Notes: a model not told the origin generated them from the letters alone. Positions 1,563 through 46,184 are shown, counted from the stretch's first letter. The stretch: 64,000 bases of DNA from an uncultured Clostridia bacterium (GCA_944384815.1 CALWUW010000027.1:243-64242); one strand, 5' to 3'. Numbers and translations: made by a program.

Positions 1563-2570
1563 TCAGCTTTCATATAAAGAAGAAGGAAGCCGAAGGTCTT
1601 CCCGGCGAAGGCACTGAGGGGAAAATTCCCCTAAAAGCTCCCGGGCGGTAAGGGGCTGAGGCTTATCCAAAAGGCCGCAGAGAGAGGCCAGAAGGCCTAA
1701 AAGCTCCTGGGGGGAAAATCGCTGCCGCAAAGCGCCCAGATCCAGAGGCTTATCCCGTTTGGAAAGGCGGATCCCCTGAGGAGAAAGCAAAAGGGGAATG
1801 TGAATGTATTCCGGCTCCGGAAATCCCAGCAGGCGGGCAAGGAAGATCTGCCGGGGGGTGGAGGAAAGAAGATCCCGCCCCCGAACCACCTGCCGGATGC
1901 CCATAGCGCCGTCATCGCATACCACAGCCAGCTGGTACGCGAAAACGCCATCGGAACGGCGGAGGATAAAATCCCCGCAGTCTCTTTGCAGCTGCTGGGA
2001 AACCCAGCCCTGCAAACCGTCCTGAAATCCTATCTCTTCCGCCGGGACGTGGATCCGCAGGGCGGGAGAGCGATCTTTTTCCAGACGGACCCGTTCTTCC
2101 GGGGTAAGACGAAAGCACCGGCCGGTGTAAACCGGATCCCCCTGAGAAAGGTGAGGCGCCTGGGCGGCGTGGAGCTGCGCCCGGGTGCAGAAACAGGGAT
2201 AGACGATCCCCAAAGCTTCCAGCCGGGCAAGACATTGTTCATAAAAAGCCGTGCGCCGGCTCTGAAAATAGAGGGAGGGCTTTCCGTTTTGGGAGCCGCC
2301 TTCGTCCCAGTCCAGCCCCAGCCAGCGGAGATCCTCTTCCATTTGCAGGGCGTATTCCAGCCGGGAACGCTGGGGGTCCAAGTCCTCCACCCGAAGGACC
2401 ATCTCCCCTCCGGCGGAACGTGTGTACAGCCAGGCCAAAAGGGCGCAGAATACGTTTCCCAAATGCATACGCCCGGTGGGAGAAGGAGCAAACCGCCCCC
2501 GAATGGGTCCAGATGGGCCCGGCTGGGGCTGGGATTGGGACTGAGGGGAAGAAATTTGGCAGATGTCCAT
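1563..2570 (-). CDS. gluQ: Glutamyl-Q tRNA(Asp) synthetase (truncated GluRS paralogue)
   Basis: RFAPSPTGRMHLGN (HIGH region) and LSKRD (KMSKS-like) are present, the protein is ~335 aa, and there is no anticodon-binding domain. An AGGAGG RBS precedes the ATG at 2570. Confidence 0.85.
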   Translation of the reverse strand: MDICQISSPQSQSQPQPGPSGPIRGRFAPSPTGRMHLGNVFCALLAWLYTRSAGGEMVLRVEDLDPQRSRLEYALQMEEDLRWLGLDWDEGGSQNGKPSLYFQSRRTAFYEQCLARLEALGIVYPCFCTRAQLHAAQAPHLSQGDPVYTGRCFRLTPEERVRLEKDRSPALRIHVPAEEIGFQDGLQGWVSQQLQRDCGDFILRRSDGVFAYQLAVVCDDGAMGIRQVVRGRDLLSSTPRQIFLARLLGFPEPEYIHIPLLLSPQGIRLSKRDKPLDLGALRQRFSPQELLGLLASLCGLLDKPQPLTARELLGEFSPQCLRREDLRLPSSLYES

Positions 2571-2766
2571 GAGAAAACCTCCTGAAACGGACGTGGAACC
2601 CACAGCCGATAAACCGGCTGAGCCGGCGAAAAAACGGTAACGCTATGTTGCTATGACGCTATGACGCCGCGGCACGGCGGCGCTACGGCCTTATAACCCG
2701 CAATGCTCCGGCGGCGCAGATTTGCGGGTTTTATTGTACCATGTTTTTTTGAATTTGAACATACAG

Positions 2767-2876
2767 CAGAAGGCAGAAGGTACAAGGCGCAAGGCACAAG
2801 TCGTAAGGTGTAAGGCACAAGGCGCAGAGTAAGAGTATAGAGCACAGAGCACAGAACACAGAACACAAAGCAAAAG
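2767..2876. repeat. Drifting tandem heptamer array (16 units, NNNARRG type)
   Basis: The sequence reads CAGAAGG CAGAAGG TACAAGG CGCAAGG CACAAGT CGTAAGG TGTAAGG CACAAGG CGCAGAG TAAGAG TATAGAG CACAGAG CACAGAA CACAGAA CACAAAG CAAAAG. Confidence 0.9.
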
Positions 2877-3004
2877 CATTGCTCCGGATCCAGGCTGTTT
2901 TACAGAGGATTGTTTATGGGAACTGCCGGAAGAAAACGCCGGGGCCCTTTGCAGAAGAGAAAGTAAATCTTTTTCCCTAAAAAAATAAAAAATTTTTCCG
3001 GAAC

Positions 3005-3033
3005 TGCAACAAAAACGGACTTTCAAACGTGTA
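3005..3033 (+). promoter_or_regulatory. ECF-type promoter candidate TGCAAC-N17-CGTGTA, preceded by an A/T-tract (2978-2997)
   Basis: The same TGCAAC-N17-GT.TATAGAA arrangement, with the same AAAAAATTTTT-type tract, recurs upstream of the second ECF sigma gene (26760-26791). Confidence 0.45.
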
Positions 3034-3062
3034 TAGAATGAGAGGGAAAAGGAGGGGGAAAC

Positions 3063-3581
3063 ATGCGGGACTACGAAAGCAAAGAAAACGTGCACCCCGA
3101 TTGGGAAGAAGTGTATCATCGCTATGTGGAAATGGTGTATCGGACTTGCGCTTATTTTTTGAAGCACCCGGCAGACGCAGAAGACGCGGTGCAGACGGTC
3201 TTTTTGCGCTTTTTGGAAAAAGCCCCTCCTTTTCAGGAAGAAGAACACTGTAAGGCCTGGCTTTTGGTCACGGCCTCCAATGTGTGCAGGGATGTGCTGC
3301 GGCGGAAAAAGGCCATCCCTCTGGAAGCCCCGGAAAATGCCGGGCAGGCCTTTTGGCGCCGGGAGGAAGCTGCTCCCGGAGAGGAAGAGAAAATCCTGGA
3401 AATTTTACTGACGCTTCCGCTGCGGTATAAACAGGTAATGTATCTTTATTATTACGAAGGATATTCCTGTGAGGAAACAGCGGCTTTACTAAAGAAAAAT
3501 CCCTCCACCGTCCGCACTCTTCTTCGCAGGGGAAGGGAAAAGCTGAAAATTCAGTTGGCAGGAAAGGAAGGATCCAAATGA
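3063..3581 (+). CDS. ECF-family RNA polymerase sigma-70 factor
   Basis: Region 2 (DAEDAVQTVFLRFL...KAWLLVTASNVCRDVLRRKK) and region 4 (YKQVMYLYYYEGYSCEETAALLKKNPSTVRTLLRRGREKL) are both present. A GGAGGGGG RBS precedes the start. Confidence 0.9.
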   Translation: MRDYESKENVHPDWEEVYHRYVEMVYRTCAYFLKHPADAEDAVQTVFLRFLEKAPPFQEEEHCKAWLLVTASNVCRDVLRRKKAIPLEAPENAGQAFWRREEAAPGEEEKILEILLTLPLRYKQVMYLYYYEGYSCEETAALLKKNPSTVRTLLRRGREKLKIQLAGKEGSK

Positions 3582-4648
3582 AACGGGGGAAAACCAAGAT
3601 CCTGTGTTTACAGGAAGCGGCCGGAGAACGGCTGGAGATGCAGCGTGTGTTTCGGGTCTTGGAACCCATTCGACCGGACGAAGAGGCGATTCAGCGAATG
3701 AAAACCGCCATTGCGCAAAAAGTCGCTGAAAAAATCAGCGGAGAAAGCCTTCCTTTGGAAAGGAAAGGGATGGCACGGCCCCGGGCGGCAGCGGCCTGTC
3801 TGGCTGTTGTATTGGCTCTGGCGGCGGGAGGCGCCGTTTTGTGGCTGACGGAAGGCGGCGGATTTTCCCTGGGTGGGATGACGCCTCCTGTGGGAGAAGG
3901 GTCATCTTCATCGCAAAATGAGGGAGAAAACAGCGGGTCCGGCCAGCAGGAGAACACTTCCTTGGCGTATATGACATTGTTCTATCAGAACCGGCGCTAT
4001 AAATCCCAGATGGAAATCAATCCTGTCGTCCGGGAAAAATACCAGATCCAGGCTTCTTTTGGTGAGTGTTTGGGAGAAGTCAAGCCTTTGTATGACGCTA
4101 TGGGGGAGAGCTCTTTTCATTCTTCCTCTTCCGTCTCTTCCCCTTCTTCTTATCCGGACCTTACCGTGAATATCCTTCTTTCCGGAGAAATTTATACTAT
4201 GCAGGGATATGACCCTCGATTTTTACTGTGCCGGTTTCAGGAAAGTCCCTACCCGGAGACGGCCTTTACCTTCTACCTGTGTTTGGATGATTTTTCTATT
4301 TCCACCGGCAAGGATCTGTTTGGAGATCTGCTGCATCTGAAGGAATACACGTTGGGCCGTGAAAGCGGAAGCCGGGAAAACGGGGCTTGTTATCCTCTTC
4401 CGGATAATTGGGATGCTTTCTTGGAAGAATTGTATGCGGCTCCTGTGGCCACACCCCAAGAGGGAGAGGTGGATTATAAGAAAGCAACCGGCCTTTCTCT
4501 TCATCTTCAGGGTGGAATTTGCGCTTCCATTTCGCTGTTTGAAAACGGCTGGGTGGAATTCGCCGATATGTTCTTCCGGCTGGAAGGGCAGGAATACCAG
4601 CAGGTCTATGCCTACTGCAAGGGCATGGGCGCTGAGCTTTTAGGTTGA
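3578..4648 (+). CDS. Putative anti-sigma factor: short cytoplasmic N-terminus, one TM helix, Ser/Gly linker, unassigned ~220-aa extracytoplasmic domain
   Basis: Its start overlaps the sigma gene stop (ATGA). The TM segment is AAAACLAVVLALAAGGAVLWL. The C-terminal domain is paralogous to the next two genes (LFYQNR.Y, YPDLT.N, GYDP.FLLCR, DLFGDLLHL, LP.NWDAFLEELYAAP.ATP, NGW..F.D.YFR.EG.EY..VY.Y). Confidence 0.75.
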   Translation: MKRGKTKILCLQEAAGERLEMQRVFRVLEPIRPDEEAIQRMKTAIAQKVAEKISGESLPLERKGMARPRAAAACLAVVLALAAGGAVLWLTEGGGFSLGGMTPPVGEGSSSSQNEGENSGSGQQENTSLAYMTLFYQNRRYKSQMEINPVVREKYQIQASFGECLGEVKPLYDAMGESSFHSSSSVSSPSSYPDLTVNILLSGEIYTMQGYDPRFLLCRFQESPYPETAFTFYLCLDDFSISTGKDLFGDLLHLKEYTLGRESGSRENGACYPLPDNWDAFLEELYAAPVATPQEGEVDYKKATGLSLHLQGGICASISLFENGWVEFADMFFRLEGQEYQQVYAYCKGMGAELLG

Positions 4649-4784
4649 CGGAACAGCCCGGCGTCCGATGCCCGGCGTGCAAAACGAAAATATAAGTTCA
4701 GGTGTTCAGGAAGCCGGAGGCGTTCCGGCTCCCTCAGGAAAGATAGCGGGACAGGATACGGGCCGTAAGCCGCAGCCCCATAGC

Positions 4785-4856
4785 CCTACAGTCACACAGC
4801 CACACAGACCTAAATCCTACAGACTACAGACTACAGACCACAGTCACAGGCCACAG
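4785..4856. repeat. Drifting tandem 7-8-mer array (CCTACAG/ACTACAG type)
   Basis: The sequence reads CCTACAG TCACACAG CCACACAG ACCTAAAT CCTACAG ACTACAG ACTACAG ACCACAG TCACAG GCCACAG. Confidence 0.85.
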
Positions 4857-4920
4857 CGGCGGGCGTATACAGGGAAACAGGCGCCCGCAGGCGAAAATCC
4901 AAAACAAAGGAGGAATTCTT

Positions 4921-5730
4921 ATGGCAAAGCATTCTGGTTCTTGTGGTTCCTTTCTGAAAAAAGCGCCTACAGCAGCGCCGTCACTCCGGAAAATGGCGGC
5001 CGTATTTCTGGCGTTTTCCCTTTTGCTTCTTTCCGCTTGCCAGGGAAATACCTCTCAGGTTACCTATGAATTTCGTCCTTTTGCTTCTTTGTATTATCAG
5101 GACCGGCAGTATGAGGCGTATACATCGGTGAATTGTATTGCCCGGGAAAAGCAGGATATAGAAATGCTTTTGGAGGAATACCTGGGAGAAGCCAGGCCGT
5201 CCCAGGGAGAGGCGGGGGAAGAAACCGGCGCCCATCCCGATCTCACCGGAAACTTCCCTACGGAATCGAAGGTGTATACGCTGGAAGATTACGATCCCCG
5301 ATTTTTGCTGTGCCGGCTTCGTGAAGGACCGGAAGGGGAGCTTAGCCGGATTGTGTTCCACCAATGCCTGGATGATTTTACCATTGCCACCGGGGAGGAC
5401 TTGTTCGGAGATCTGCTGCATCTGCATCAAAACGCGTGGGGTTTGGAAAAAGGGATGGCTTCTCCGGAAGGGCCGTATGCCCTCCCGGAAAACTGGGATG
5501 CGTTTCTGGAAGAATTGTATGCGGCTCCCGTGGCTACCCCTGGGGATGGGGAACTCCGGCAAGGAATATATATTTTTCTCAATGTGCAAAAAGGAATGCA
5601 GGTGAGTTTGCACCTGAATCCAAACGGTTGGGTGGGATTTTCCGATACGTACTTCCGGGTGGAAGGGGAAGAATACCGGAAAGTCTATGCCTATTGCCAG
5701 GGATTTTATGCGACGCCCATCCGGGAATAA
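4921..5730 (+). CDS. Lipoprotein, paralogue 2 of the anti-sigma ectodomain family
   Basis: An AAGGAGG RBS precedes the start and the lipobox is LLLLSAC. The protein shares the conserved blocks listed for 3578-4648. Confidence 0.85.
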   Translation: MAKHSGSCGSFLKKAPTAAPSLRKMAAVFLAFSLLLLSACQGNTSQVTYEFRPFASLYYQDRQYEAYTSVNCIAREKQDIEMLLEEYLGEARPSQGEAGEETGAHPDLTGNFPTESKVYTLEDYDPRFLLCRLREGPEGELSRIVFHQCLDDFTIATGEDLFGDLLHLHQNAWGLEKGMASPEGPYALPENWDAFLEELYAAPVATPGDGELRQGIYIFLNVQKGMQVSLHLNPNGWVGFSDTYFRVEGEEYRKVYAYCQGFYATPIRE

Positions 5731-5926
5731 AGGAAAGATGACGAAAAGAAACGGTTGCCGCCGGAACACAGGAACACCGGAACACTGAAACACCGGATTG
5801 GCAGCAGACCTGTAAGAGAATAAAGAAGAGAGGAATGTGAAAAGCGAAAGAAAAAGGGAAAAAGAAAAAAGAAAAAAGAAAAATGGAAACGTGTATGGTT
5901 CAGCAATGTTGAAAGGGGGAATCTTC

Positions 5927-6742
5927 GTGACAAACTCTCGATTTTCTTTGAAAAGGTCTCTGGCCTGGCTTTTGGCCCTTTCCCTTCTGCTCCTTTCCGC
6001 CTGCCAGAAAGCACCTTCCTCCGGCGGTTCTTCCTCTTTGGGGGAGGAAAGCGGCAATTCCGCTTCCGGCCAGCAAGGAAATGCCTCCTGGGCGTATGCG
6101 TCCCTGTTTTATCAGAATCGGCACTACAAAACCAATTGGATGACGTTCACGGAGGAAGATAACGCCAAAAGAAAAGCCGTGTTGGGTGATTTTTTGGGAG
6201 AAGGGAAACCATTATATGACGGAGCGGAAAACGGTTCCTCCTATCCGGATCTCACTTTCAATGTAGGGTTGGATGGTGATGTGTATACGGTAAAGGGATA
6301 CGACCCGAAATTTTTGCTTTGCCGCTTCACTGAAGCCTCTTCAGAAGACCCAGGCGGCGTAATGTTTCATTGCTGCCTGGAAGGATTTTCCTTTTCCACC
6401 GGCAAGGATTTGTTCGGGGATTTGCTGCATCTAAAGGAAAAATCCTCGCTTTTGGGAAAAGCTTTTCTTAACCCGGAATATTCCGATCATTCTCTTCCGG
6501 AAAACTGGGACGCGTTCCTGGAAGAGCTTTACGCCGCCCCGGCCGCCACGCCTCAGGAGAATGAAATTCAAGAGGGAGTACTTCTGCGGATCGTGGCGTC
6601 GGATGGAATCCGAGCAGATGTGGCCCTGTATGAAAGCGGCTGGGCGGAATTTTCGGATGTATATTTCCGCCTGGAAGGGCAGGAATATCAAAAGGTGTAT
6701 GAGTACGCCAAAGAGGTATATGGGGACGAAGCTATGCCGTAA
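5927..6742 (+). CDS. Lipoprotein, paralogue 3 of the anti-sigma ectodomain family
   Basis: The lipobox is LLLLSAC and the conserved blocks are the same as for 3578-4648. I prefer the GTG at 5927 (RBS AAGGGGGA 6 nt upstream). The track start at 5837 would add a Lys/Glu/Arg-rich extension translated from a polypurine tract. Confidence 0.8.
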   Translation: MTNSRFSLKRSLAWLLALSLLLLSACQKAPSSGGSSSLGEESGNSASGQQGNASWAYASLFYQNRHYKTNWMTFTEEDNAKRKAVLGDFLGEGKPLYDGAENGSSYPDLTFNVGLDGDVYTVKGYDPKFLLCRFTEASSEDPGGVMFHCCLEGFSFSTGKDLFGDLLHLKEKSSLLGKAFLNPEYSDHSLPENWDAFLEELYAAPAATPQENEIQEGVLLRIVASDGIRADVALYESGWAEFSDVYFRLEGQEYQKVYEYAKEVYGDEAMP

Positions 6743-6792
6743 AGAAATCTTCTGTGATTTGCCCCTGTAAGGCACCGTGATCCATATAAGCC

Positions 6793-6845
6793 AATAAAAC
6801 GCGGCCGGCTTCTGGAATGCACCAGGAGCCGGCCGTTGTTTTTTA
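6793..6845. terminator. Bidirectional intrinsic terminator between convergent genes
   Basis: A 14-bp stem CGGCCGGCTTCTGG/CCAGGAGCCGGCCG is flanked by an A-rich run on the left and TTGTTTTTT on the right. Confidence 0.8.
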
Positions 6846-6867
6846 TGGATTCTTTTTTCACTGAAAA

Positions 6868-7722
6868 TTACCCTACGGCTTCCACAGAAGACGCGTTCTG
6901 GGCTTCTTCCGGAAGAGAGGGGAATTTAGTGCCGCCTATATCGGAGAAACCGGCGGCCAGGGTGCACTGGGAGATCTTCACCGCGTCCTCCGCACCGTCA
7001 ATGGCTTCAAATACCTGCTGCATCCGCTGGGAAGCGTCCAGCTCCAGATGAAGAAGCCGACCGTCTTCCTTGCTGATCCAGCAATATCCGTGCAGGCCCG
7101 TTCCATTTTCCAGACTGTTCAGGCTTTCAATGAGCACATCCGTCAGCTCTCCTGCGGAGGAGTCCATACCGGAAGAAACGATCAGCGTTTCCAGCAGGCT
7201 GCGTAGACATTCTCCGTCGAAGGACAGTTCCAGTTTATGGGCAGCGATGCCTTCCCACTCCTCTTCCCGCAGATAGCTTTGCCCTTTTACATGGGAAAGC
7301 AGCTGCAGCATATCCAGCTGTTTCTGAGGGTCCGTGTCCAGCTCCTCCAGAGGCGTTTTGAACCAGCCGTCCCCGGATTGACTGTATTGGACGAAACTGC
7401 CGTTTTCCTCCAGAACATAGCTTTCCAAAGTGGACGGCGCGCCGGCAGCATTGGAGACGGCCAGAGTGTACAGGCCGAAGGGGTCTTTCCGGTATGTGGT
7501 ATCGTTCCTTTGGGAAAAGGAATACGTGGGGGAATCTTCCAGCTCCTGTATGGTGAAGGTTAGTTGACTTTCATAATATAAGGTGCCGTTTTCCATGGAG
7601 CCGGCCAGGGAGTAAGCCTCCCGGAACAAAGCGCCTGCGTCCGGTGTTTCCGAAGAACAGGCGAACAGGAAGAAAATACTGGCCAGCAGGGCGGCGGCAG
7701 CGGCGAAAAGCTTTTTTTTCAT
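6868..7722 (-). CDS. Secreted lipoprotein of unknown function
   Basis: MKKKLFAAAAALLASIFFLFACSS is a signal peptide with a lipobox. An AAGGAG RBS lies upstream of the ATG at 7722, and the track start at 7734 is a GTG. I do not recognise any enzymatic motif. Confidence 0.8.
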   Translation of the reverse strand: MKKKLFAAAAALLASIFFLFACSSETPDAGALFREAYSLAGSMENGTLYYESQLTFTIQELEDSPTYSFSQRNDTTYRKDPFGLYTLAVSNAAGAPSTLESYVLEENGSFVQYSQSGDGWFKTPLEELDTDPQKQLDMLQLLSHVKGQSYLREEEWEGIAAHKLELSFDGECLRSLLETLIVSSGMDSSAGELTDVLIESLNSLENGTGLHGYCWISKEDGRLLHLELDASQRMQQVFEAIDGAEDAVKISQCTLAAGFSDIGGTKFPSLPEEAQNASSVEAVG

Positions 7723-8007
7723 TGCGGTGAGCACTCCTTTTTCAGCGGCTTGATAGGGCTGCTTCTGGTTTTATATTGAATAGGAAAAAAAGAGCTAAGG
7801 TTCTGCTCCGGCTCAACATACAGAAAAATTTAAAAGAAAATCCAAAAACGCGGCGGCCGGAAAAAGAACAGGTTTTCTGTTATCATACCAGATATTTTTT
7901 GGAGCCGCAAGGTTTCCCTGTTTTTGGATGTTGCGGAATCTTGTTTTTGCCGGTGAGGAAAGGGCGGAAGTAGGGAAAGGGAGACGGAAAGGCTTCTTCC
8001 TCCGCTC

Positions 8008-8037
8008 TTGACAGTATCAGACAAAAAAGGGTAAAAT
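8008..8037 (+). promoter_or_regulatory. Sigma-A-type promoter TTGACA-18-TAAAAT
   Basis: The hexamers TTGACA (8008-8013) and TAAAAT (8032-8037) lie ~50 nt upstream of the 8088 start codon. Confidence 0.6.
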
Positions 8038-8087
8038 ATCAGTATCTTCAGCCCGATAAACCGGGCATTTCAAGGGAGTTTCTGCAT

Positions 8088-9329
8088 ATGAACAAACGAA
8101 AAGAAGCGGCGCTGAAAATGGCTTCGCTTTCTGTATACAGAGGAATTTTAAAACGCACCGTTCCCGGCGCGCTGTACCAGTTGCTGCAGGCGGAAAAAGA
8201 GGAAGACTTTTTGCAGGCCTGGGGGCGCTTTTTTGCCGTCCTCTGCGAAAGAGGGTACAGCGAAGATCTGGCGGGCTGCATTACAGGCACGGCGCTTTAT
8301 GATGAAAATGCCTTTTCCGTGGCGGCTGCCGCCGGAGAAACGGAATTTGCCGCGCCCCTGCTGGAAGCCGTAAAGCGGGATCTGCAGGTGATTTTGGAAG
8401 TTTCCCGGTTGACGCCCGGCGATCTTTTAGAGGGCTGCCCGGTGGAAGATCCTTACGCTCTGGCTCTTCCTTTTTGGGGGACCGGCCAGCCGGTGTCGGC
8501 GCTGGAGGGAGAAATTTCCCATTGTATCCGCCGAATGGCTGCGTATTATAAAGATAACGGCTGCGGCATGTATGCCCGGTATCGGGCGTTTATCTGGCGG
8601 GATTCCGCCATTCAGCCGGTGGCTTTCCCGGATAAAACCCGCCTGAAGGATCTGAAGGGCTATGAATTGCCCCGGGAATTGGCGGTGAACAATACCCTGG
8701 CGTTTCTGCAGGGGTATCCGGCCAACAACTGCCTTTTGTATGGGGACAGGGGAACCGGAAAATCCTCCACAGTAAAGGCGATGCTTAACGAGTTCTATCC
8801 CCAGGGGCTGCGGGTGATTGAAATGCCCAAGGAATCTTTGATGGATTTCCCCAAGCTGGTGGATCAGATCGCCGCTTTGCCCATGCGGTTTATTATTTTT
8901 ATTGATGATCTTTCCTTTTCCAAGGAAACCGATACCTACGCGGCCCTGAAAGCGGTGCTGGAAGGAGGGCTGGCCGCCCGTCCGGAAAATGCCCTGATCT
9001 ATGCCACCTCCAACCGGCGGCACCTGATTCGGGAAACCTTTTCCGATCGGGAAGGCGATGAGCTTCATCGGGGAGATACTATTCAGGAGACCCTTTCCCT
9101 GGCGGACCGTTTCGGCCTTTCCATCAATTTCAGCCTGCCGGACAAGACCCATTATCTGGAGATCGTGCGGCAGCTGGCAGCTCTTCGGGGAATCGGGATC
9201 CAGGAAAAAGAATTGGAAGCGGCGGCAGAACGTTGGGCGGTGGCCCGGGGAGGGCGTTCACCTCGCTGCGCCAGGCAGTTTATCGACGACGCAGAGGCCA
9301 GATGGAAACGCGGCATGCCTCTGGAGTAA
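8088..9329 (+). CDS. DUF815-type P-loop ATPase (AAA-like), function unknown
   Basis: Walker A is GDRGTGKSS and Walker B is FIIFIDDLSF. The blocks IYATSNRRHLI, SLADRFGL and GGRSPR.ARQFID are typical of the family as I recall it. Confidence 0.8.
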   Translation: MNKRKEAALKMASLSVYRGILKRTVPGALYQLLQAEKEEDFLQAWGRFFAVLCERGYSEDLAGCITGTALYDENAFSVAAAAGETEFAAPLLEAVKRDLQVILEVSRLTPGDLLEGCPVEDPYALALPFWGTGQPVSALEGEISHCIRRMAAYYKDNGCGMYARYRAFIWRDSAIQPVAFPDKTRLKDLKGYELPRELAVNNTLAFLQGYPANNCLLYGDRGTGKSSTVKAMLNEFYPQGLRVIEMPKESLMDFPKLVDQIAALPMRFIIFIDDLSFSKETDTYAALKAVLEGGLAARPENALIYATSNRRHLIRETFSDREGDELHRGDTIQETLSLADRFGLSINFSLPDKTHYLEIVRQLAALRGIGIQEKELEAAAERWAVARGGRSPRCARQFIDDAEARWKRGMPLE

Positions 9330-19803: not shown

Positions 19804-19844
19804 CAACCAATAAACCAACAAGCCAACAAGCCAACAAGCCAACG
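19804..19844. repeat. Tandem 8-mer array (CAAGCCAA type)
   Basis: The sequence reads CAACCAAT AAACCAA CAAGCCAA CAAGCCAA CAAGCCAA. Confidence 0.85.
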
Positions 19845-19892
19845 TCTCGAATATTCAGCGGCTCCCAAAACGAGTTCCGTCGAAACGAAGAT

Positions 19893-19959
19893 CGTATATT
19901 CCTTATACTCTGTATGCTCCTGGTGTTCCTTATGTTTCGTATGTTCCGTTCGTTCTGTC
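19893..19959. repeat. Drifting ~9-mer array (NNTATNNTC type)
   Basis: The sequence reads CGTATATTC CTTATACTC TGTATGCTC CTGGTGTTC CTTATGTTTC GTATGTTC CGTTCGTTC. Confidence 0.75.
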
Positions 19960-26648: not shown

Positions 26649-26759
26649 GCCCAAATCCCAAATTTCACCGAAAAACAGGATGACTTTTCCGAAAAATACG
26701 GTATAATAAAGGCGCCTTTGGGGTCCATAAAAAATTTTTAAAAAAATTTTTTGAAATAA

Positions 26760-26791
26760 TGCAACCGTTTGCGAAAAAACTTGTCTATAGA
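26760..26791 (+). promoter_or_regulatory. ECF-type promoter candidate TGCAAC-N17-GTCTATAGAA, preceded by an A/T-tract (26727-26759)
   Basis: See the matching element at 3005-3033. Confidence 0.45.
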
Positions 26792-26824
26792 AATAGGACG
26801 GCAAAATCCGGAAAGGAGAGGAAC

Positions 26825-27385
26825 ATGGAAGACGGCAGAATCGTCCAGCTGTACTGGCAGCGCGAAGAACAGGCCATTGAGGAAACGGCCCGGAAATACC
26901 AGTCGTACTGTATGAAGATTTCCATGAATATTCTGGGAAGCCAGCTGGATAGCGAAGAGTGCGTAGCCGATACGTATCTGCAGGCATGGAACGCCATTCC
27001 CCCTAAGCGCCCGGCGTCTCTTTCAGCATTTCTGGGAAAAATTACCCGGAATCTGGCCATTAACCGATACCAGGCCCGGCACGCGGAAAAACGCAGGGGA
27101 AATGAATTTGCCCTTTCCCTGGAAGAGCTGGATGCCTGTGTCCCTGATGCCGGTGATATGCAGGAAAGATGGGAAGAAAAAGCGGTGAGCTGGTGTATCA
27201 ACGGATTTCTTCGAACCCAGTCCAAAGATGCCAGAGGAATTTTTATCTGCCGCTATTTTTATTGCGATTCCGTTTCCGAGATTGCCCAACGCTTTGGATA
27301 CAGTGAAAGCAAGGTGAAATCTCTGCTGTTCAGGACACGGAATAAACTGAAACTTTATTTGGAAAAGGAGGGAGTGCTGTTATGA
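26825..27385 (+). CDS. ECF-type sigma-70 family RNA polymerase sigma factor
   Basis: Region 2 (DSEECVADTYLQAWNAIP...) and region 4 (IFICRYFYCDSVSEIAQRFGYSESKVKSLLFRTRNKL) are present. A GGAAAGGAGAGG RBS precedes the start. Confidence 0.9.
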   Translation: MEDGRIVQLYWQREEQAIEETARKYQSYCMKISMNILGSQLDSEECVADTYLQAWNAIPPKRPASLSAFLGKITRNLAINRYQARHAEKRRGNEFALSLEELDACVPDAGDMQERWEEKAVSWCINGFLRTQSKDARGIFICRYFYCDSVSEIAQRFGYSESKVKSLLFRTRNKLKLYLEKEGVLL

Positions 27386-27990
27386 AGGCTGTGGAAGATA
27401 GAAAAGATATGCAAAATATGAAGGATGTAAAGCAGGAAAAATTGGCCCGGATTCTTACGGATCTGGATGAAGATCTGCTGGATGAAGCGGAATTCATGCG
27501 GCAGGAAAGCGCTCCCGGAAAGAAAAGGCTGCTTCGTCAGTGGGGTGCGGCGGCAGCGTGCCTGGCCATTCTTTTGGCAGGGCTTTGGGGGCTGCTCCCG
27601 GGGAAAACGCCGGAAATCACATTATGGGGAGAGGAGATCACGTCCTCCCCTGTGGAGATCCCGCTGAATGAAAAGATTTCTCCCGCACGGTTTTCGGATT
27701 CCAAAGAAGCGGTGCCGCTGGAGCTTTCTTTGGAAGTGCAGATGGAAGCGGGGACGGAATTGGAAGCTGCCCAAGGGGAAATAAAGGTTTTGGATACACA
27801 AAAGCGTCTTCTGGGAGAAGGAACCCGGTGGACAGCCACGGAGAAACAGGATGTGCAGGTTCTTTGGAGGCTTTCCTGGGAAGCGGAGAAGAAAGCTCCT
27901 TCTCTGGAAATTCGGAAAGCGGAGGAGACCGTTTGCCTCCTGGTAGAGTGGGACTCTGAAAAAGAAGTTTTTACCCTGCGAAGGGGATAA
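27382..27990 (+). CDS. Putative anti-sigma factor (single-pass membrane protein)
   Basis: Its start overlaps the sigma gene stop (ATGA). The TM segment is WGAAAACLAILLAGLWGLL. I do not recognise the ~120-aa ectodomain. Confidence 0.7.
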   Translation: MKAVEDRKDMQNMKDVKQEKLARILTDLDEDLLDEAEFMRQESAPGKKRLLRQWGAAAACLAILLAGLWGLLPGKTPEITLWGEEITSSPVEIPLNEKISPARFSDSKEAVPLELSLEVQMEAGTELEAAQGEIKVLDTQKRLLGEGTRWTATEKQDVQVLWRLSWEAEKKAPSLEIRKAEETVCLLVEWDSEKEVFTLRRG

Positions 27991-28072
27991 TTGCTGGTCC
28001 TTTAGGAAAAATATGGATGTTTCCATATATAAACACCAATACACAAACAAAAGAACATTGGAGGTTTTACCT

Positions 28073-28741
28073 ATGAATTGGATGAGAAAAATTGGAAGTT
28101 TTGGCCTTGCCGCTCTTTTGACCCTTTCTATGGCTGCCTGCCAGAATTCGGAAAGCACTTCTTCTGCTTCTTCCGCAGGTTCTCAGGCGTCTTCTGAAAG
28201 CACCGGATCCAGCCAGGCAGAAAGCCAGACCGAAAGCCAGGCTTCTTCCGGAAGCGAATCTGTGGAAGCGGAGACCGCTTTGGATTTCCTGAATGCAGTT
28301 TGGGACTCCTTTGCGGAAGAGGAGAAATTCCCTGCAGCGGGAGGAGATTCTTCTGAGGAAAACATGACCATGAACGCTCCGGGAAAATTCTCCGTTGAAG
28401 ACGCGGCCATTTTGGATTCCACCCTGGGATTCCCGGCAGATGCAGCGGATCAGATCGACGATGCGGCTTCCCTGACCCATATGATGAATGCCAACAATTT
28501 CACTTGCGGTGTTTTCCATGTTGCCGGTGAGGGCAGCGCGGAAGATGTGGCGGAAGCCTTGAAGGAAAACATCCTGAAGCGGCAGTGGATGTGCGGATTC
28601 CCGGAGGAACTGGTGATCGTAACAGTGGGAGACTATGTGGTTTCCACCTTCGGCACCAAGGACATTCTGGATACTTTCCAGGAAAAGCTCCAGGAAGTCT
28701 ATCCGTCCGCGGAAGTGTTCTGTGAGGAGGCCATTGCCTGA
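28073..28741 (+). CDS. Small secreted lipoprotein, DUF4358-like
   Basis: The lipobox is LTLSMAAC, followed by a Ser-rich linker. The C-terminal block FTCGVFHVAGEGSAEDVAEALKENILKRQWMCGFPEELVIV resembles the family that usually sits beside MBOAT/DHHW genes. This family call is from memory only. Confidence 0.6.
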   Translation: MNWMRKIGSFGLAALLTLSMAACQNSESTSSASSAGSQASSESTGSSQAESQTESQASSGSESVEAETALDFLNAVWDSFAEEEKFPAAGGDSSEENMTMNAPGKFSVEDAAILDSTLGFPADAADQIDDAASLTHMMNANNFTCGVFHVAGEGSAEDVAEALKENILKRQWMCGFPEELVIVTVGDYVVSTFGTKDILDTFQEKLQEVYPSAEVFCEEAIA

Positions 28742-31346: not shown

Positions 31347-31430
31347 TAAACAGTAAACCGTAAACAGTAAACAGAAAGCAGGAACAAGAGGCAGGAAACC
31401 GGAAACAGGAAACCGAAGATCGGAAACCGG
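31347..31430. repeat. Drifting tandem heptamer array (12 units in perfect register)
   Basis: The sequence reads TAAACAG TAAACCG TAAACAG TAAACAG AAAGCAG GAACAAG AGGCAGG AAACCGG AAACAGG AAACCGA AGATCGG AAACCGG. Confidence 0.9.
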
Positions 31431-41845: not shown

Positions 41846-41862
41846 GGTTTCGCCTCCTGTAC

Positions 41863-41909
41863 GGTTACACAGTTACACGATTACACAGTTACATGGTTAC
41901 ACAGTTACA
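41863..41909. repeat. Drifting tandem repeat (GTTACAC/GTTACATG type) filling the fabG-fabF spacer
   Basis: The sequence reads GGTTACACA GTTACACGA TTACACA GTTACATG GTTACACA GTTACATG GTTACATG. Confidence 0.85.
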
Positions 41910-41912
41910 TGG

Positions 41913-42656
41913 TTACATGCTCATGCCGCCGTCCACCCGGAGCACTTCTCCCGTAATATAGGAAGCGGCGTCTCCGGCCAGAAAAGCGGCAGCTTCCGCC
42001 ACATCCTCCGGCGTTCCGGCCCGCTTGGCGGGAATGGAAGAGAGGATGGCCTCCCGGGCTTTTTCCGGCAGGGCGGCGGTCATATCCGATGCGATATATC
42101 CCGGAGCGATGGCATTGCAAGTGACATTCCGCCCGGCCAGCTCCTTGGCCACGCTTTTGGTCAGGCCGATGAGCCCGGCTTTGGCGGCGGAATAGTTGGC
42201 CTGACCGGCATTTCCGTTTAAACCCACCACGGAGGAAATGTTGATGATCCTTCCGGAACGCTTCCGCATAAAGTGGGAATACAAATGCCGGATCATATGG
42301 AAAGCTCCGGTGAGATTGATGGAAAGCACCCGGGCAAAGTCTTCTTCTTTCATGGAAAGCACCAGGCCGTCCCGAACGATCCCCGCGTTGTTGACCAAAA
42401 TGTCCACGCCGCCGAAATCTTCCAGAACGGACTGGACCACGGCCTTTGTGGCCTCAAAGTCCGAAACATCGCAGGAATAGGTTTTCACCCGGACTCCCAG
42501 CGCTTCCACCTGTGCCTTGGTTTCTTCCGCAGCCTGATGGTTCCCGGCGTAAACCAGGGCGATGTTCGCCCCTTCCTGAGCCAGACGCAGCGCGATGGCT
42601 TTTCCGATGCCGCGGGAGCCTCCGGTGATTAAAGCTGTTTTCTGATTCAGTTTCAT
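41913..42656 (-). CDS. fabG: 3-oxoacyl-ACP reductase
   Basis: TGGSRGIGKA and YSAAKAG are present. The ATG at 42656 gives MKLNQKTALITGG. Confidence 0.9.
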   Translation of the reverse strand: MKLNQKTALITGGSRGIGKAIALRLAQEGANIALVYAGNHQAAEETKAQVEALGVRVKTYSCDVSDFEATKAVVQSVLEDFGGVDILVNNAGIVRDGLVLSMKEEDFARVLSINLTGAFHMIRHLYSHFMRKRSGRIINISSVVGLNGNAGQANYSAAKAGLIGLTKSVAKELAGRNVTCNAIAPGYIASDMTAALPEKAREAILSSIPAKRAGTPEDVAEAAAFLAGDAASYITGEVLRVDGGMSM

Positions 42657-44594: not shown

Positions 44595-44650
44595 GTCTGC
44601 CGTCTGCCGTCTGCCATATGCCGTCTGCCGCATGTGGTCGGTCGTGGCTG
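44595..44650. repeat. Drifting tandem heptamer array (GTCTGCC type, 8 units)
   Basis: The sequence reads GTCTGCC GTCTGCC GTCTGCC ATATGCC GTCTGCC GCATGTG GTCGGTC GTGGCTG. Confidence 0.9.
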
Positions 44651-45084: not shown

Positions 45085-45232
45085 TTTCTGGTTTCTCGGT
45101 TTCCCAGGTTCCTGGGTTCCCGAATTTCGGGGATGCCGGAAACTTGGGGATAGCGGAAAGCCTGTGGAAAGCTTGATCCGGCCCGAGAATCAGGGGTCAG
45201 GGCTCAGGACGCAGGGCTCAGGAATCAGGGCT
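45085..45232. repeat. Long composite drifting repeat (GGTTTCY ... GGAAAGC ... TCAGGGC units) in the fabH-acpP spacer
   Basis: It runs from GGTTTCT CGGTTTCC CAGGTTCC TGGGTTCC ... to TCAGGGG TCAGGGC TCAGGAC GCAGGGC TCAGGAA TCAGGGC, and the last unit abuts the fabH stop codon. Confidence 0.8.
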
Positions 45233-46184
45233 CCCAGCGCACAAGGGCCGTGCCGGATGTGAACCCGGCGCCGAACCCGCAGAGGATCATCAGATCCCCC
45301 GGCTTCAGCAGTTGGTCTCTGCGGCAGAAGTCCAGAAGCACCGGAATGCTGGCGGCGGAAAGGTTTCCTGTTTCCTGAATGCACAGGCGGTAACGATCCC
45401 CGGGGATGGGAAGTTTTTTCCGGGCGGCGTCGATGATCCGCAGATTGGCCTGGTGTAGGATTACATGGCGAATTTCCTCCGGGGAAACCCCGGTCTCCTG
45501 CAGAATGGTCTCGATGCCGGAGCAAATGGTGCTCACCGCAAATTTATATACTTCCTGCCCGTCCATATGGACAAAATGGTTTTCCGGTTTTACCGAAAGC
45601 CAGGGACTGTTTCCTCCCGGAAAACAACCGTGCAGCGGCTCCGGGCAGCCTTTGGTCTCCAGATGCAGGGAAAGCAGGCTTTCCCCTTCTCCCAACACCA
45701 CCGCGCCGGCGCCGTCTCCAAAAAGAACGCAGGTGGAGCGGTCCTCCCAGTCCATAATGCGGCTCAGGCCTTCCGCGGCGGCGATCAGCACATACCGGGC
45801 TTTTTTCCGGGCGAAAATGCCCTCCGCCGCGTCCAGGGCAAAAAGGAAACCGCTGCAGGCGGCGTTGATGTCCATAGCCGGGCAGTGGGCGCCTAAAGCG
45901 GCTTGCAGCGTGGCGCTGAGCCCGGGGGTGATATAATCGCCCCCTACAGTGGGGCAGAGGATCCAGCCCAGCTCTTCCGGGACAATCCCCGCCTGCTCCA
46001 GCGCCTTTCGGGACGCTTCTGCCGCCAGATCCGTAACGGTTTCCGTGGTCATCACATGCCGGCGGCAGATCCCGGTGCGGGTGCGGATCCATTGATCGCT
46101 GGTGTCCAGGATCTGGGCCAAGTCGTCATTGGTTTTTACACATTGCGGCAGAGCACTGCCGGTTCCTAAAATTCGAAAGCTCAT
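45225..46184 (-). CDS. fabH: Beta-ketoacyl-ACP synthase III
   Basis: INAACSGFLFAL carries the Cys. HQAN and GFGAGFT are also present. Confidence 0.9.
   Translation of the reverse strand: MSFRILGTGSALPQCVKTNDDLAQILDTSDQWIRTRTGICRRHVMTTETVTDLAAEASRKALEQAGIVPEELGWILCPTVGGDYITPGLSATLQAALGAHCPAMDINAACSGFLFALDAAEGIFARKKARYVLIAAAEGLSRIMDWEDRSTCVLFGDGAGAVVLGEGESLLSLHLETKGCPEPLHGCFPGGNSPWLSVKPENHFVHMDGQEVYKFAVSTICSGIETILQETGVSPEEIRHVILHQANLRIIDAARKKLPIPGDRYRLCIQETGNLSAASIPVLLDFCRRDQLLKPGDLMILCGFGAGFTSGTALVRWEP

Follow-up and report, generated by a model that had tools for sequence, protein, structure and literature searches.

Why would a bacterium keep three copies of one sensor-like domain behind a single sigma factor gene? 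The question is raised by a locus at positions 3063-6742 of a 64,000-nucleotide (nt) stretch of DNA from an uncultured Clostridia bacterium (CALWUW010000027.1:243-64242), the whole of which is called the window here. The locus encodes an extracytoplasmic function (ECF) sigma factor, a single-pass membrane protein of 356 amino acids (aa), here called the partner, and two lipoproteins; the same extracytoplasmic domain of ~215 aa occurs in the partner and in both lipoproteins. ECF sigma factors are a major route of bacterial signalling, and a sensed signal has been assigned to only a minority of them, least of all in uncultured gut Clostridia. The answer that we favour, with about as much doubt as confidence, is that the four genes would form one ECF operon in which the partner acts as the cognate anti-sigma factor and the lipoproteins act as a sigma-induced decoy, or negative-feedback arm.

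The first gene (3063-3581, + strand) encodes a 172-aa product that matches Sigma70_r2 (3e-14) and Sigma70_r4_2 (4.8e-14) in Pfam and TIGR02937 (sigma70-ECF; 5.3e-25) in NCBIfam. Scans of the same two collections gave no match to region 1 or region 3. With sigma2 and sigma4 as its only regions and a size within the small, ~170-200 aa class, the product is an ECF group 4 sigma factor. Its TGA stop codon overlaps the ATG of the partner gene at 3578 as ATGA (ggatccaaATGAaac), and a ribosome-binding site, GGAAAGGAAGGA, serves the partner gene. A candidate ECF-type promoter, TGCAAC-N17-CGT, is located at 3005-3030 on the + strand, 33 nt 5' of the sigma start codon.

The partner gene (3578-4648, + strand) specifies four successive parts. 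A cytoplasmic N-terminal segment (aa 1-69; 3578-3784), presumed to be the sigma-binding, or anti-sigma, part, is followed by a single transmembrane (TM) helix (aa 70-88; 3785-3841; hydropathy window score 2.41), by a linker rich in Gly, Ser, Asn and Glu (aa 89-128; 3842-3961) and by the first, membrane-anchored copy of the ectodomain (aa 129-356; 3962-4648), which the family profile matches at 2e-62. In the translation, basic residues (KGMARPR) are found N-terminal of the TM helix and the acidic, Gly/Ser-rich linker C-terminal of it. The protein is predicted to be N-in, C-out, with one TM helix, because basic residues precede that helix. Translation might instead begin at M21 (3638).

Two lipoprotein genes follow on the same strand, each with a ribosome-binding site ahead of it. 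The first (4921-5730) encodes a 269-aa paralogue that carries ectodomain copy 2 (lipobox LLLLSAC, Cys40; family profile 3.7e-61), and the second (5927-6742) encodes a 271-aa paralogue that carries a linker and ectodomain copy 3 (lipobox LLLLSAC; family profile 2e-60). In both products, a regular-expression search and reading of the sequence find LLLLSAC, followed by Q, after a basic n-region (SLRK / SLKR). The start of the second lipoprotein gene is ambiguous among a GTG at 5927 with the ribosome-binding site AAAGGGGG, an ATG at 5906 and a GTG at 5837; gene callers use all three, giving products of 271, 278 and 301 aa. An earlier note on the window had described this gene order, with its ATGA overlap and single-pass partner, and had also proposed that the ectodomain is triplicated, that both downstream proteins carry LLLLSAC lipoboxes and that the domain belongs to no recognised family. 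All of these proposals agree with the present analysis.

The three ectodomains are clearly paralogous. Copy 1, the C-terminal ~228 aa of the partner, is 48% identical to copy 2 and 51% identical to copy 3, and copies 2 and 3 share 42% identity. There are 75 columns that are invariant across the three copies, and these include every block listed in the earlier note: LFYQ.R.Y, PDLT.N, VYT..GYDP.FLLCR, CL..F...TG.DLFGDLLHL, LP.NWDAFLEELYAAP.ATP and GW..F.D.YFR.EG.EY..VY.Y. A family profile recovers exactly three copies in the 64-kb window, over profile positions 4-221. By alignment, the linker is also homologous between the partner and the second lipoprotein (SGQQENTS and SGQQGNAS, respectively), and the duplicated unit therefore included linker and ectodomain. 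In the second lipoprotein, a lipoprotein signal peptide now stands in place of the former TM helix.

Codon usage shows that the duplications are old and that all three copies are functional and under purifying selection. When Met and Trp are excluded, 49 of the 73 invariant residues differ synonymously in at least one copy, and third-position identity among the paralogues is only 41-47%. Purifying selection acts on each copy, because identical residues use different synonymous codons. Gene conversion as the source of the identical blocks is ruled out, as the blocks carry synonymous differences. The same four-gene locus is present in ten contigs of the same species (L001-L010), all at least 99.8% identical to the window; at that identity the strain-level ratio of nonsynonymous to synonymous substitution rates (dN/dS) is powerless, and the comparison of paralogue codons was used instead.

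The ectodomains of the window proteins have no match in Pfam, NCBIfam, PHROGs or PDB sequences, and no Pfam or NCBIfam model covers the domain in 88 full-length family members. A word-indexed homology search with the ectodomain alone returned the three window proteins only, and with a 25-sequence profile it returned 8. When a profile built from the three ectodomains was run exhaustively with HMMER over 1.84 billion cluster representatives, 360 of these matched at E ≤ 1e-3, of which 58 reached E ≤ 1e-10. The family is thus counted as 360 clusters at 50% identity, and 150 proteins were retrieved for the analysis of architecture. The ectodomain is no orphan; it represents a large, uncurated family of ~215-aa domains. 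Retrieved members are usually 300-360 aa long and consist of an N-terminus of 30-40 aa, one TM helix, a linker and the C-terminal domain. Blocks conserved family-wide (profile A4) are G.VYTVKGYD..FRLC, LNGITL.TG.DLF..RLHL, W..FL..LY and GGYV.Y. Near-invariant positions are occupied by Tyr, Gly, Phe and Leu, with no invariant residues of catalytic type. A binding module is favoured over an enzyme because such residues are absent.

AlphaFold2 modeling with the 25-sequence alignment predicts a beta-rich N-lobe and an alpha/beta C-lobe, with a predicted local distance difference test (pLDDT) score of 86.5 and a predicted template-modelling (pTM) score of 0.83. The model obtained with a 3-sequence alignment (pLDDT 50.5) was unusable. 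Foldseek found no significant match to the ectodomain model, the best E values being 0.24 in PDB (template-modelling score ~0.1) and 0.14 in BFVD. The weak matches that it listed, including DynU16, PAS domains, PsbP and others, are noise, with probabilities of ≤0.06 and template-modelling scores of ~0.1. A profile search of PDB picked up a Kelch-like strand motif (G.VYTVKGYD) of 15-37 residues, with a best whole-sequence E of 9e-06. Homology to designed Kelch (SAKe) proteins was rejected, as the motif is short and no top match contains a stretch that passes on its own. The earlier note had suggested profile and structure comparisons; the Pfam and NCBIfam scans of 88 members, the PDB profile search and Foldseek together assign the domain to no characterised family.

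Across genomes, genes for the domain are strongly associated with ECF sigma genes. One genome of each GTDB species was scanned with a tighter sub-alignment as the query, and this yielded 80 loci, mostly from gut and rumen, in Oscillospiraceae, Lachnospiraceae, Acutalibacteraceae, Ruminococcus flavefaciens, Hathewaya proteolytica, Anaerolentibacter hominis, an Erysipelotrichaceae metagenome-assembled genome and others. Linkage could be examined at 72 loci with enough upstream sequence, namely 70 of the 80 genome loci and the distant homologues L011 and L014. At 69 of these 72, an ECF-sigma-like open reading frame homologous to the window sigma factor runs up to or into the beginning of the family gene, mostly with an overlap of 4 nt between that start and the sigma stop codon; L011 and L014 are both sigma-coupled. 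In Pfam scans of 76 sequences, Sigma70_r2 was matched in 65 and Sigma70_r4_2 in 54. The linkage to sigma genes that the earlier note had looked for in other genomes is therefore present at these loci, and this outcome, like that of the profile and fold comparisons, favours the note. The free family members examined have no adjacent sigma gene.

Three classes can be distinguished among the cytoplasmic N-termini of the linked proteins; a separate sigma clade accompanies each class, and the ectodomain is unchanged across them. The window-type N-terminus (..EPS..A..RML..) is found in the window and at L045, L081 and L086. In the window partner it takes the form LEPIRPDEEAIQRM, which resembles the xEPSxxAxxRML of those three loci, and their sigma factors are the closest to the window sigma factor, at 36-45% identity. 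A short basic N-terminus, MKN..E...LLERRD.Y...RKKRK, occurs at ~16 loci, whose sigma factors score 40-72 bits against that of the window. The mainstream N-terminus, LLDAIG.ID.KYI.EA, occurs at ~50 loci with distant sigma factors. This co-variation is what would be expected if the N-terminus were a sigma-specific binder and the ectodomain a portable sensor, and it lends that arrangement indirect support.

Two further ECF sigma genes in the window show the same scaffolds with other ectodomains. One (33079-32558, - strand) encodes a product 37% identical to that of 3063-3581, and its 351-aa single-pass partner (32561-31506) combines a window-type N-terminus (LQADEAMKERLL) with a Peptidase_M23 ectodomain. 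The other (26759-27385, + strand) belongs to the mainstream clade, matching a profile of the family-linked sigma factors at 1e-70, and is ATGA-coupled to a 202-aa partner (27382-27990) with the N-terminus L..DLDEDLLDEAE; the small ectodomain of this partner has no Pfam match. Because related sigma factors in the window pair with different ectodomains, it follows that ectodomains are exchanged among anti-sigma scaffolds, as happens in the clostridial RsgI systems (PMC6852018, PMC4711584). The gene that follows 27382-27990 encodes a lipoprotein (28013-28741) that is not paralogous to the ectodomain of that partner.

Whether the lipoprotein genes belong to the sigma operon depends on the sequences between the genes. 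Spacer 1 (4649-4920, + strand; 272 nt) contains period-7/8 arrays at 4773-4856, identified with Tandem Repeats Finder (TRF), and the ribosome-binding site AAAGGAGG before 4921. Spacer 2 (5731-5926, + strand; 196 nt) contains the TRF arrays CCGGAACA (5761-5797) and AAAGAAA (5847-5889). On the + strand, neither spacer contains a site that resembles a terminator or, in a scan that covers sigma-70-type promoters only, a promoter, and neither holds an AAC-N15-18-CGT motif. Rfam gave no match in the spacers, and their folding is unremarkable (z-scores of +0.45 for spacer 1 and -0.43 for spacer 2). The operon ends at an intrinsic terminator (6801-6836) with a 15-pair stem, 11 of whose pairs are GC, followed by TGTTTTTTAT; this stem-loop with its T-run is the sole strong + strand terminator within 2500-8200. 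The simplest reading is that all four genes would be co-transcribed, because the spacers contain no + strand terminator, no sigma-70-like promoter and no AAC..CGT motif.

The terminator had earlier been described as bidirectional and shared with a convergent gene. It is a strong hairpin on the + strand, and it is plausibly bidirectional and shared with the convergent gene at 6868-7734, because an AATAAAA tract sits on its 5' side. The convergent gene (- strand) encodes a lipoprotein of 284-288 aa (MKKKLFAAAAALLASIFFLFAC), for which Pfam, NCBIfam and PHROGs gave no match; the protein bears no relation to the triplicated domain.

The drifting repeats of the spacers, also pointed out in the earlier note, are present, and they are not specific to this operon. 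Degenerate period-7/8 arrays also occur 5' of the sigma gene (2640-2667 and 2766-2872; TRF), and further arrays with drifting units are found in window gaps at 19807-19947, 31347-31430, 41861-41917, 44595-44630 and 45190-45233. Throughout the window, intergenic arrays have a period of 7-9 and 3-8 copies, with a unit that drifts within an array and differs between sites. The tandem arrays are a feature of the genome and not of the operon, because similar arrays occupy other intergenic gaps of the window. The GGAACA-type repeats of spacer 2 were considered as ECF -35 elements and dropped, as there is no AAC-N15-18-CGT motif there and unrelated units occur window-wide.

The favoured mechanism can be set out as follows. 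The short cytoplasmic N-terminus of the partner would hold the sigma factor at the membrane, and the ~215-aa outer domain would detect a cue from outside the cytoplasm. If the partner behaves as other single-pass anti-sigma factors do, this cue would lead to proteolytic removal of the anti-sigma factor and release of the sigma factor, which would then transcribe its own operon from TGCAAC-N17-CGT to the terminator at 6801-6836. Induction would also yield two lipoproteins that expose, on the outside of the membrane, their own old and selectively maintained versions of the sensor domain. These versions may bind either the same ligand or the ectodomain of the anti-sigma factor, so that the cue would be sequestered and the response damped or reset. 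The analysis shows the gene order, the translational coupling, the topology, the paralogy of the copies and the purifying selection on them, the family-wide sigma linkage and the co-variation of N-terminus and sigma clade. We infer that the partner binds the sigma factor, that proteolysis frees it, that the lipoprotein genes are transcribed together with the other two and that their products serve as decoys.

Several observations weigh against this mechanism. The promoter motif is post hoc: the pattern was picked after the site had been read, and its single match in the 64-kb window compares with 0.9 expected by chance, or about one chance match per window. Spacers of 272 and 196 nt are long for an operon and may hide promoter types that fall outside the scan. 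No recognised anti-sigma domain was found by Pfam at the N-terminus of the partner or of the 88 family members. The free family members that were examined are not located beside ECF sigma genes. Neither conserved neighbours nor fold relatives point to a ligand or stimulus: among 104 neighbouring families, none occurs at more than 4 of 71 loci, and Foldseek found no relative of the fold in PDB or BFVD. Finally, the triplication has been met in one species only, which leaves its generality at nil. Metagenomes were scanned for proteins close to the trio and gave three distant matches only, hence no second species with the multi-copy operon, and on present data the combination of a membrane sensor with two lipoproteins is confined to one species.

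Among the alternatives, the one that survives best, while still unlikely, is that the lipoproteins are co-sensors or modulators. They would bind the ectodomain of the anti-sigma factor, giving hetero-oligomers of like domains, and either shield it from the site-1 protease until displaced by a cue, as RseB does, or capture the ligand and pass it on to the anti-sigma factor, thereby setting the sensitivity of the switch and not serving as decoys. A shared interface would fit the observation that candidate surface blocks such as LP.NWDAFLEELYAAP.ATP and TG.DLFGDLLHL are identical in three domains that are under selection. Tandem copies within one polypeptide are found in P0005 (2 copies; a lipoprotein, L096 220-1857), P0015 (3 copies) and P0020 (2 copies), and these relatives suggest that the domain tolerates close packing against itself; they can be viewed as the intramolecular counterpart of the three separate genes in the window. 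ECF operons with accessory extracytoplasmic proteins are also known, for example rpoE-rseA-rseB-rseC (PMC4336711). The copy number elsewhere argues against a co-sensor. Exactly one copy of the domain occurs within ~4 kb at each of the 80 other loci, so that 80 other species have a single copy and no accessory paralogue, and a partner paralogue is not intrinsic to signalling.

A slightly less probable alternative is that the domain is mainly an effector with a surface-binding or protective role. The lipoproteins would then be output of the regulon, and the anti-sigma factor would sense what the effector handles, with no feedback. About a dozen of the 150 retrieved proteins, or ~10% of the family, are free secreted or lipoprotein forms, in which a signal peptide or lipobox is all that precedes the domain. 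One of them is P0004, which is the nearest outgroup to the trio and is preceded by a terminator and promoter region of its own; P0067 follows an amino-acid ATP-binding cassette (ABC) transporter, and P0132 stands alone in a 7.26-Mb genome. The domain can work outside the cell without a sigma switch, because these free members lie away from sigma genes. Clostridial RsgI proteins offer a parallel, as they sense through carbohydrate-binding domains of the kind also present in the enzymes under their control (PMC6852018, PMC4711584). However, in ~90% of the family the domain is joined to a TM helix and an N-terminus of anti-sigma type, and no effector copy lies close by; neither Pfam and NCBIfam scans of the 88 members nor Foldseek detected an enzymatic or known binding signature.

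It is more doubtful still that the lipoprotein genes are transcriptionally independent, arising by tandem duplication and having no functional tie to the sigma switch. The long, repeat-rich spacers would suit such independence, as would the lack of an ECF-type motif before either lipoprotein gene, the promoter scan having covered the sigma-70 type only. Against it, there is no + strand terminator between the genes and a strong one only after the last, and the same-strand order has outlasted a divergence that saturates third codon positions.

The weakest alternative would make the partner a co-expressed membrane protein that is no anti-sigma factor, with the sigma factor controlled in some other way. 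The cytoplasmic segment is only 30-40 aa long in most family members, and classical class I anti-sigma domains are longer. The partner also lacks a recognised anti-sigma domain: Pfam scans of the window protein and the 88 members found no zf-HC2, RskA, DUF4179-associated or RsgI_N domain, and the best NCBIfam 'antisigma' score of the partner is that of NF052375, at E = 0.12. This alternative is nevertheless very improbable, given that the overlapping gene pair is conserved in ~70 species, that the N-terminal class co-varies with the sigma clade and that single-TM partners are the commonest ECF regulators, described for 82 ECF groups (PMC7826278).

The favoured reading, an operon in which sigma-induced lipoproteins act as decoys, can also be extended to a bolder claim that is probably too strong. 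Under this claim, the ~215-aa domain would be a ligand-binding fold without a solved relative and the common sensor of at least three ECF sigma/anti-sigma lineages in gut and rumen Clostridia, and its duplication into sigma-induced lipoprotein decoys in this species would create a self-limiting 'sensor-equals-sponge' circuit. A limited literature search found no description of such a feedback circuit in ECF signalling.

Some neighbouring genes can be noted separately. A glutamyl-Q tRNA synthetase-like gene (1563-2603) flanks the operon, and upstream of it there are HTH_3/HTH_31 regulator and TnpV-family genes (636-857 and 1029-1424, - strand; 870-1643 in the same-species contig L001). Their presence hints that the remnant of a mobile element is nearby. 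In two unrelated contigs, a family member has a CotH-family gene at a distance of 1-2 kb or less (L011, 3002-4378; L095, 1449-2918); with no more than two cases, this is probably a coincidence.

The locus draws attention to an uncurated sensor module with a confident model and no detectable solved relative; the protein clusters that contain it number in the hundreds, and it occurs in 80 species or more. It also provides a natural experiment, in that one species carries the module in two settings, once in a membrane sensor and twice in a free lipoprotein. Expression of these soluble forms should be straightforward, which would help ligand screens and structural work, and a ligand found through them would probably apply family-wide. 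If the lipoproteins are indeed sigma-induced decoys, they would represent a new feedback design in ECF signalling.

In kind, the locus is an ECF sigma/single-pass anti-sigma module, a type that is already known, and it falls outside all curated anti-sigma N-terminal and ectodomain families. Single-pass ECF anti-sigma factors sequester their sigma factor, which is released by regulated proteolysis once an extracytoplasmic cue arrives, and RsiV of B. subtilis binds lysozyme directly (PMC4183432). The locus resembles the RsiV system in that the gene overlapping the end of the ECF sigma gene encodes a single-TM protein, N-in and C-out, whose ectodomain is of ligand-binding type (PMC4183432), and ligand-triggered release is the model that would apply, by analogy, to the 356-aa partner. 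Unlike RsiV, the window protein matches no curated anti-sigma or RsiV-type domain in its ectodomain or N-terminus, and Foldseek finds no RsiV-like structure. To our knowledge, RsiV operons carry no free paralogues of the sensor domain.

The sigma-I/RsgI systems are likewise found in Clostridia and use a conserved sigma-binding N-terminus and one TM helix to carry interchangeable sensor modules (PMC6852018, PMC4711584, PMC10328401). As in the window, the type of module used as a sensor also occurs in secreted proteins, CBM3 and PA14 being RsgI examples. The window sigma factor differs from sigma-I in being a canonical sigma2 plus sigma4 ECF protein with Sigma70_r4_2. Pfam finds neither RsgI_N nor a carbohydrate-binding module in the partner or the 88 members, and Foldseek matches the ectodomain model neither to the RsgI periplasmic domain nor to any other PDB entry. 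The locus is not a sigma-I/RsgI system. DUF4179 anti-sigma factors (PMC7826278) are likewise Firmicutes-restricted, single-TM ECF partners with a lineage-specific ectodomain; DUF4179 is not matched in any of the 88 members scanned.

For the lipoproteins, the nearest precedents are accessory proteins. RseB, encoded in rpoE-rseA-rseB-rseC (PMC4336711), is a secreted protein co-encoded with its sigma factor that modulates signalling outside the membrane, and CseA of the Streptomyces sigE operon (PMC6767563) is a lipid-anchored modulator that is likewise co-encoded with a sigma factor. Neither RseB nor CseA is a paralogue of the sensor that it modulates, whereas the accessory proteins of the window are duplicates of the sensor itself.

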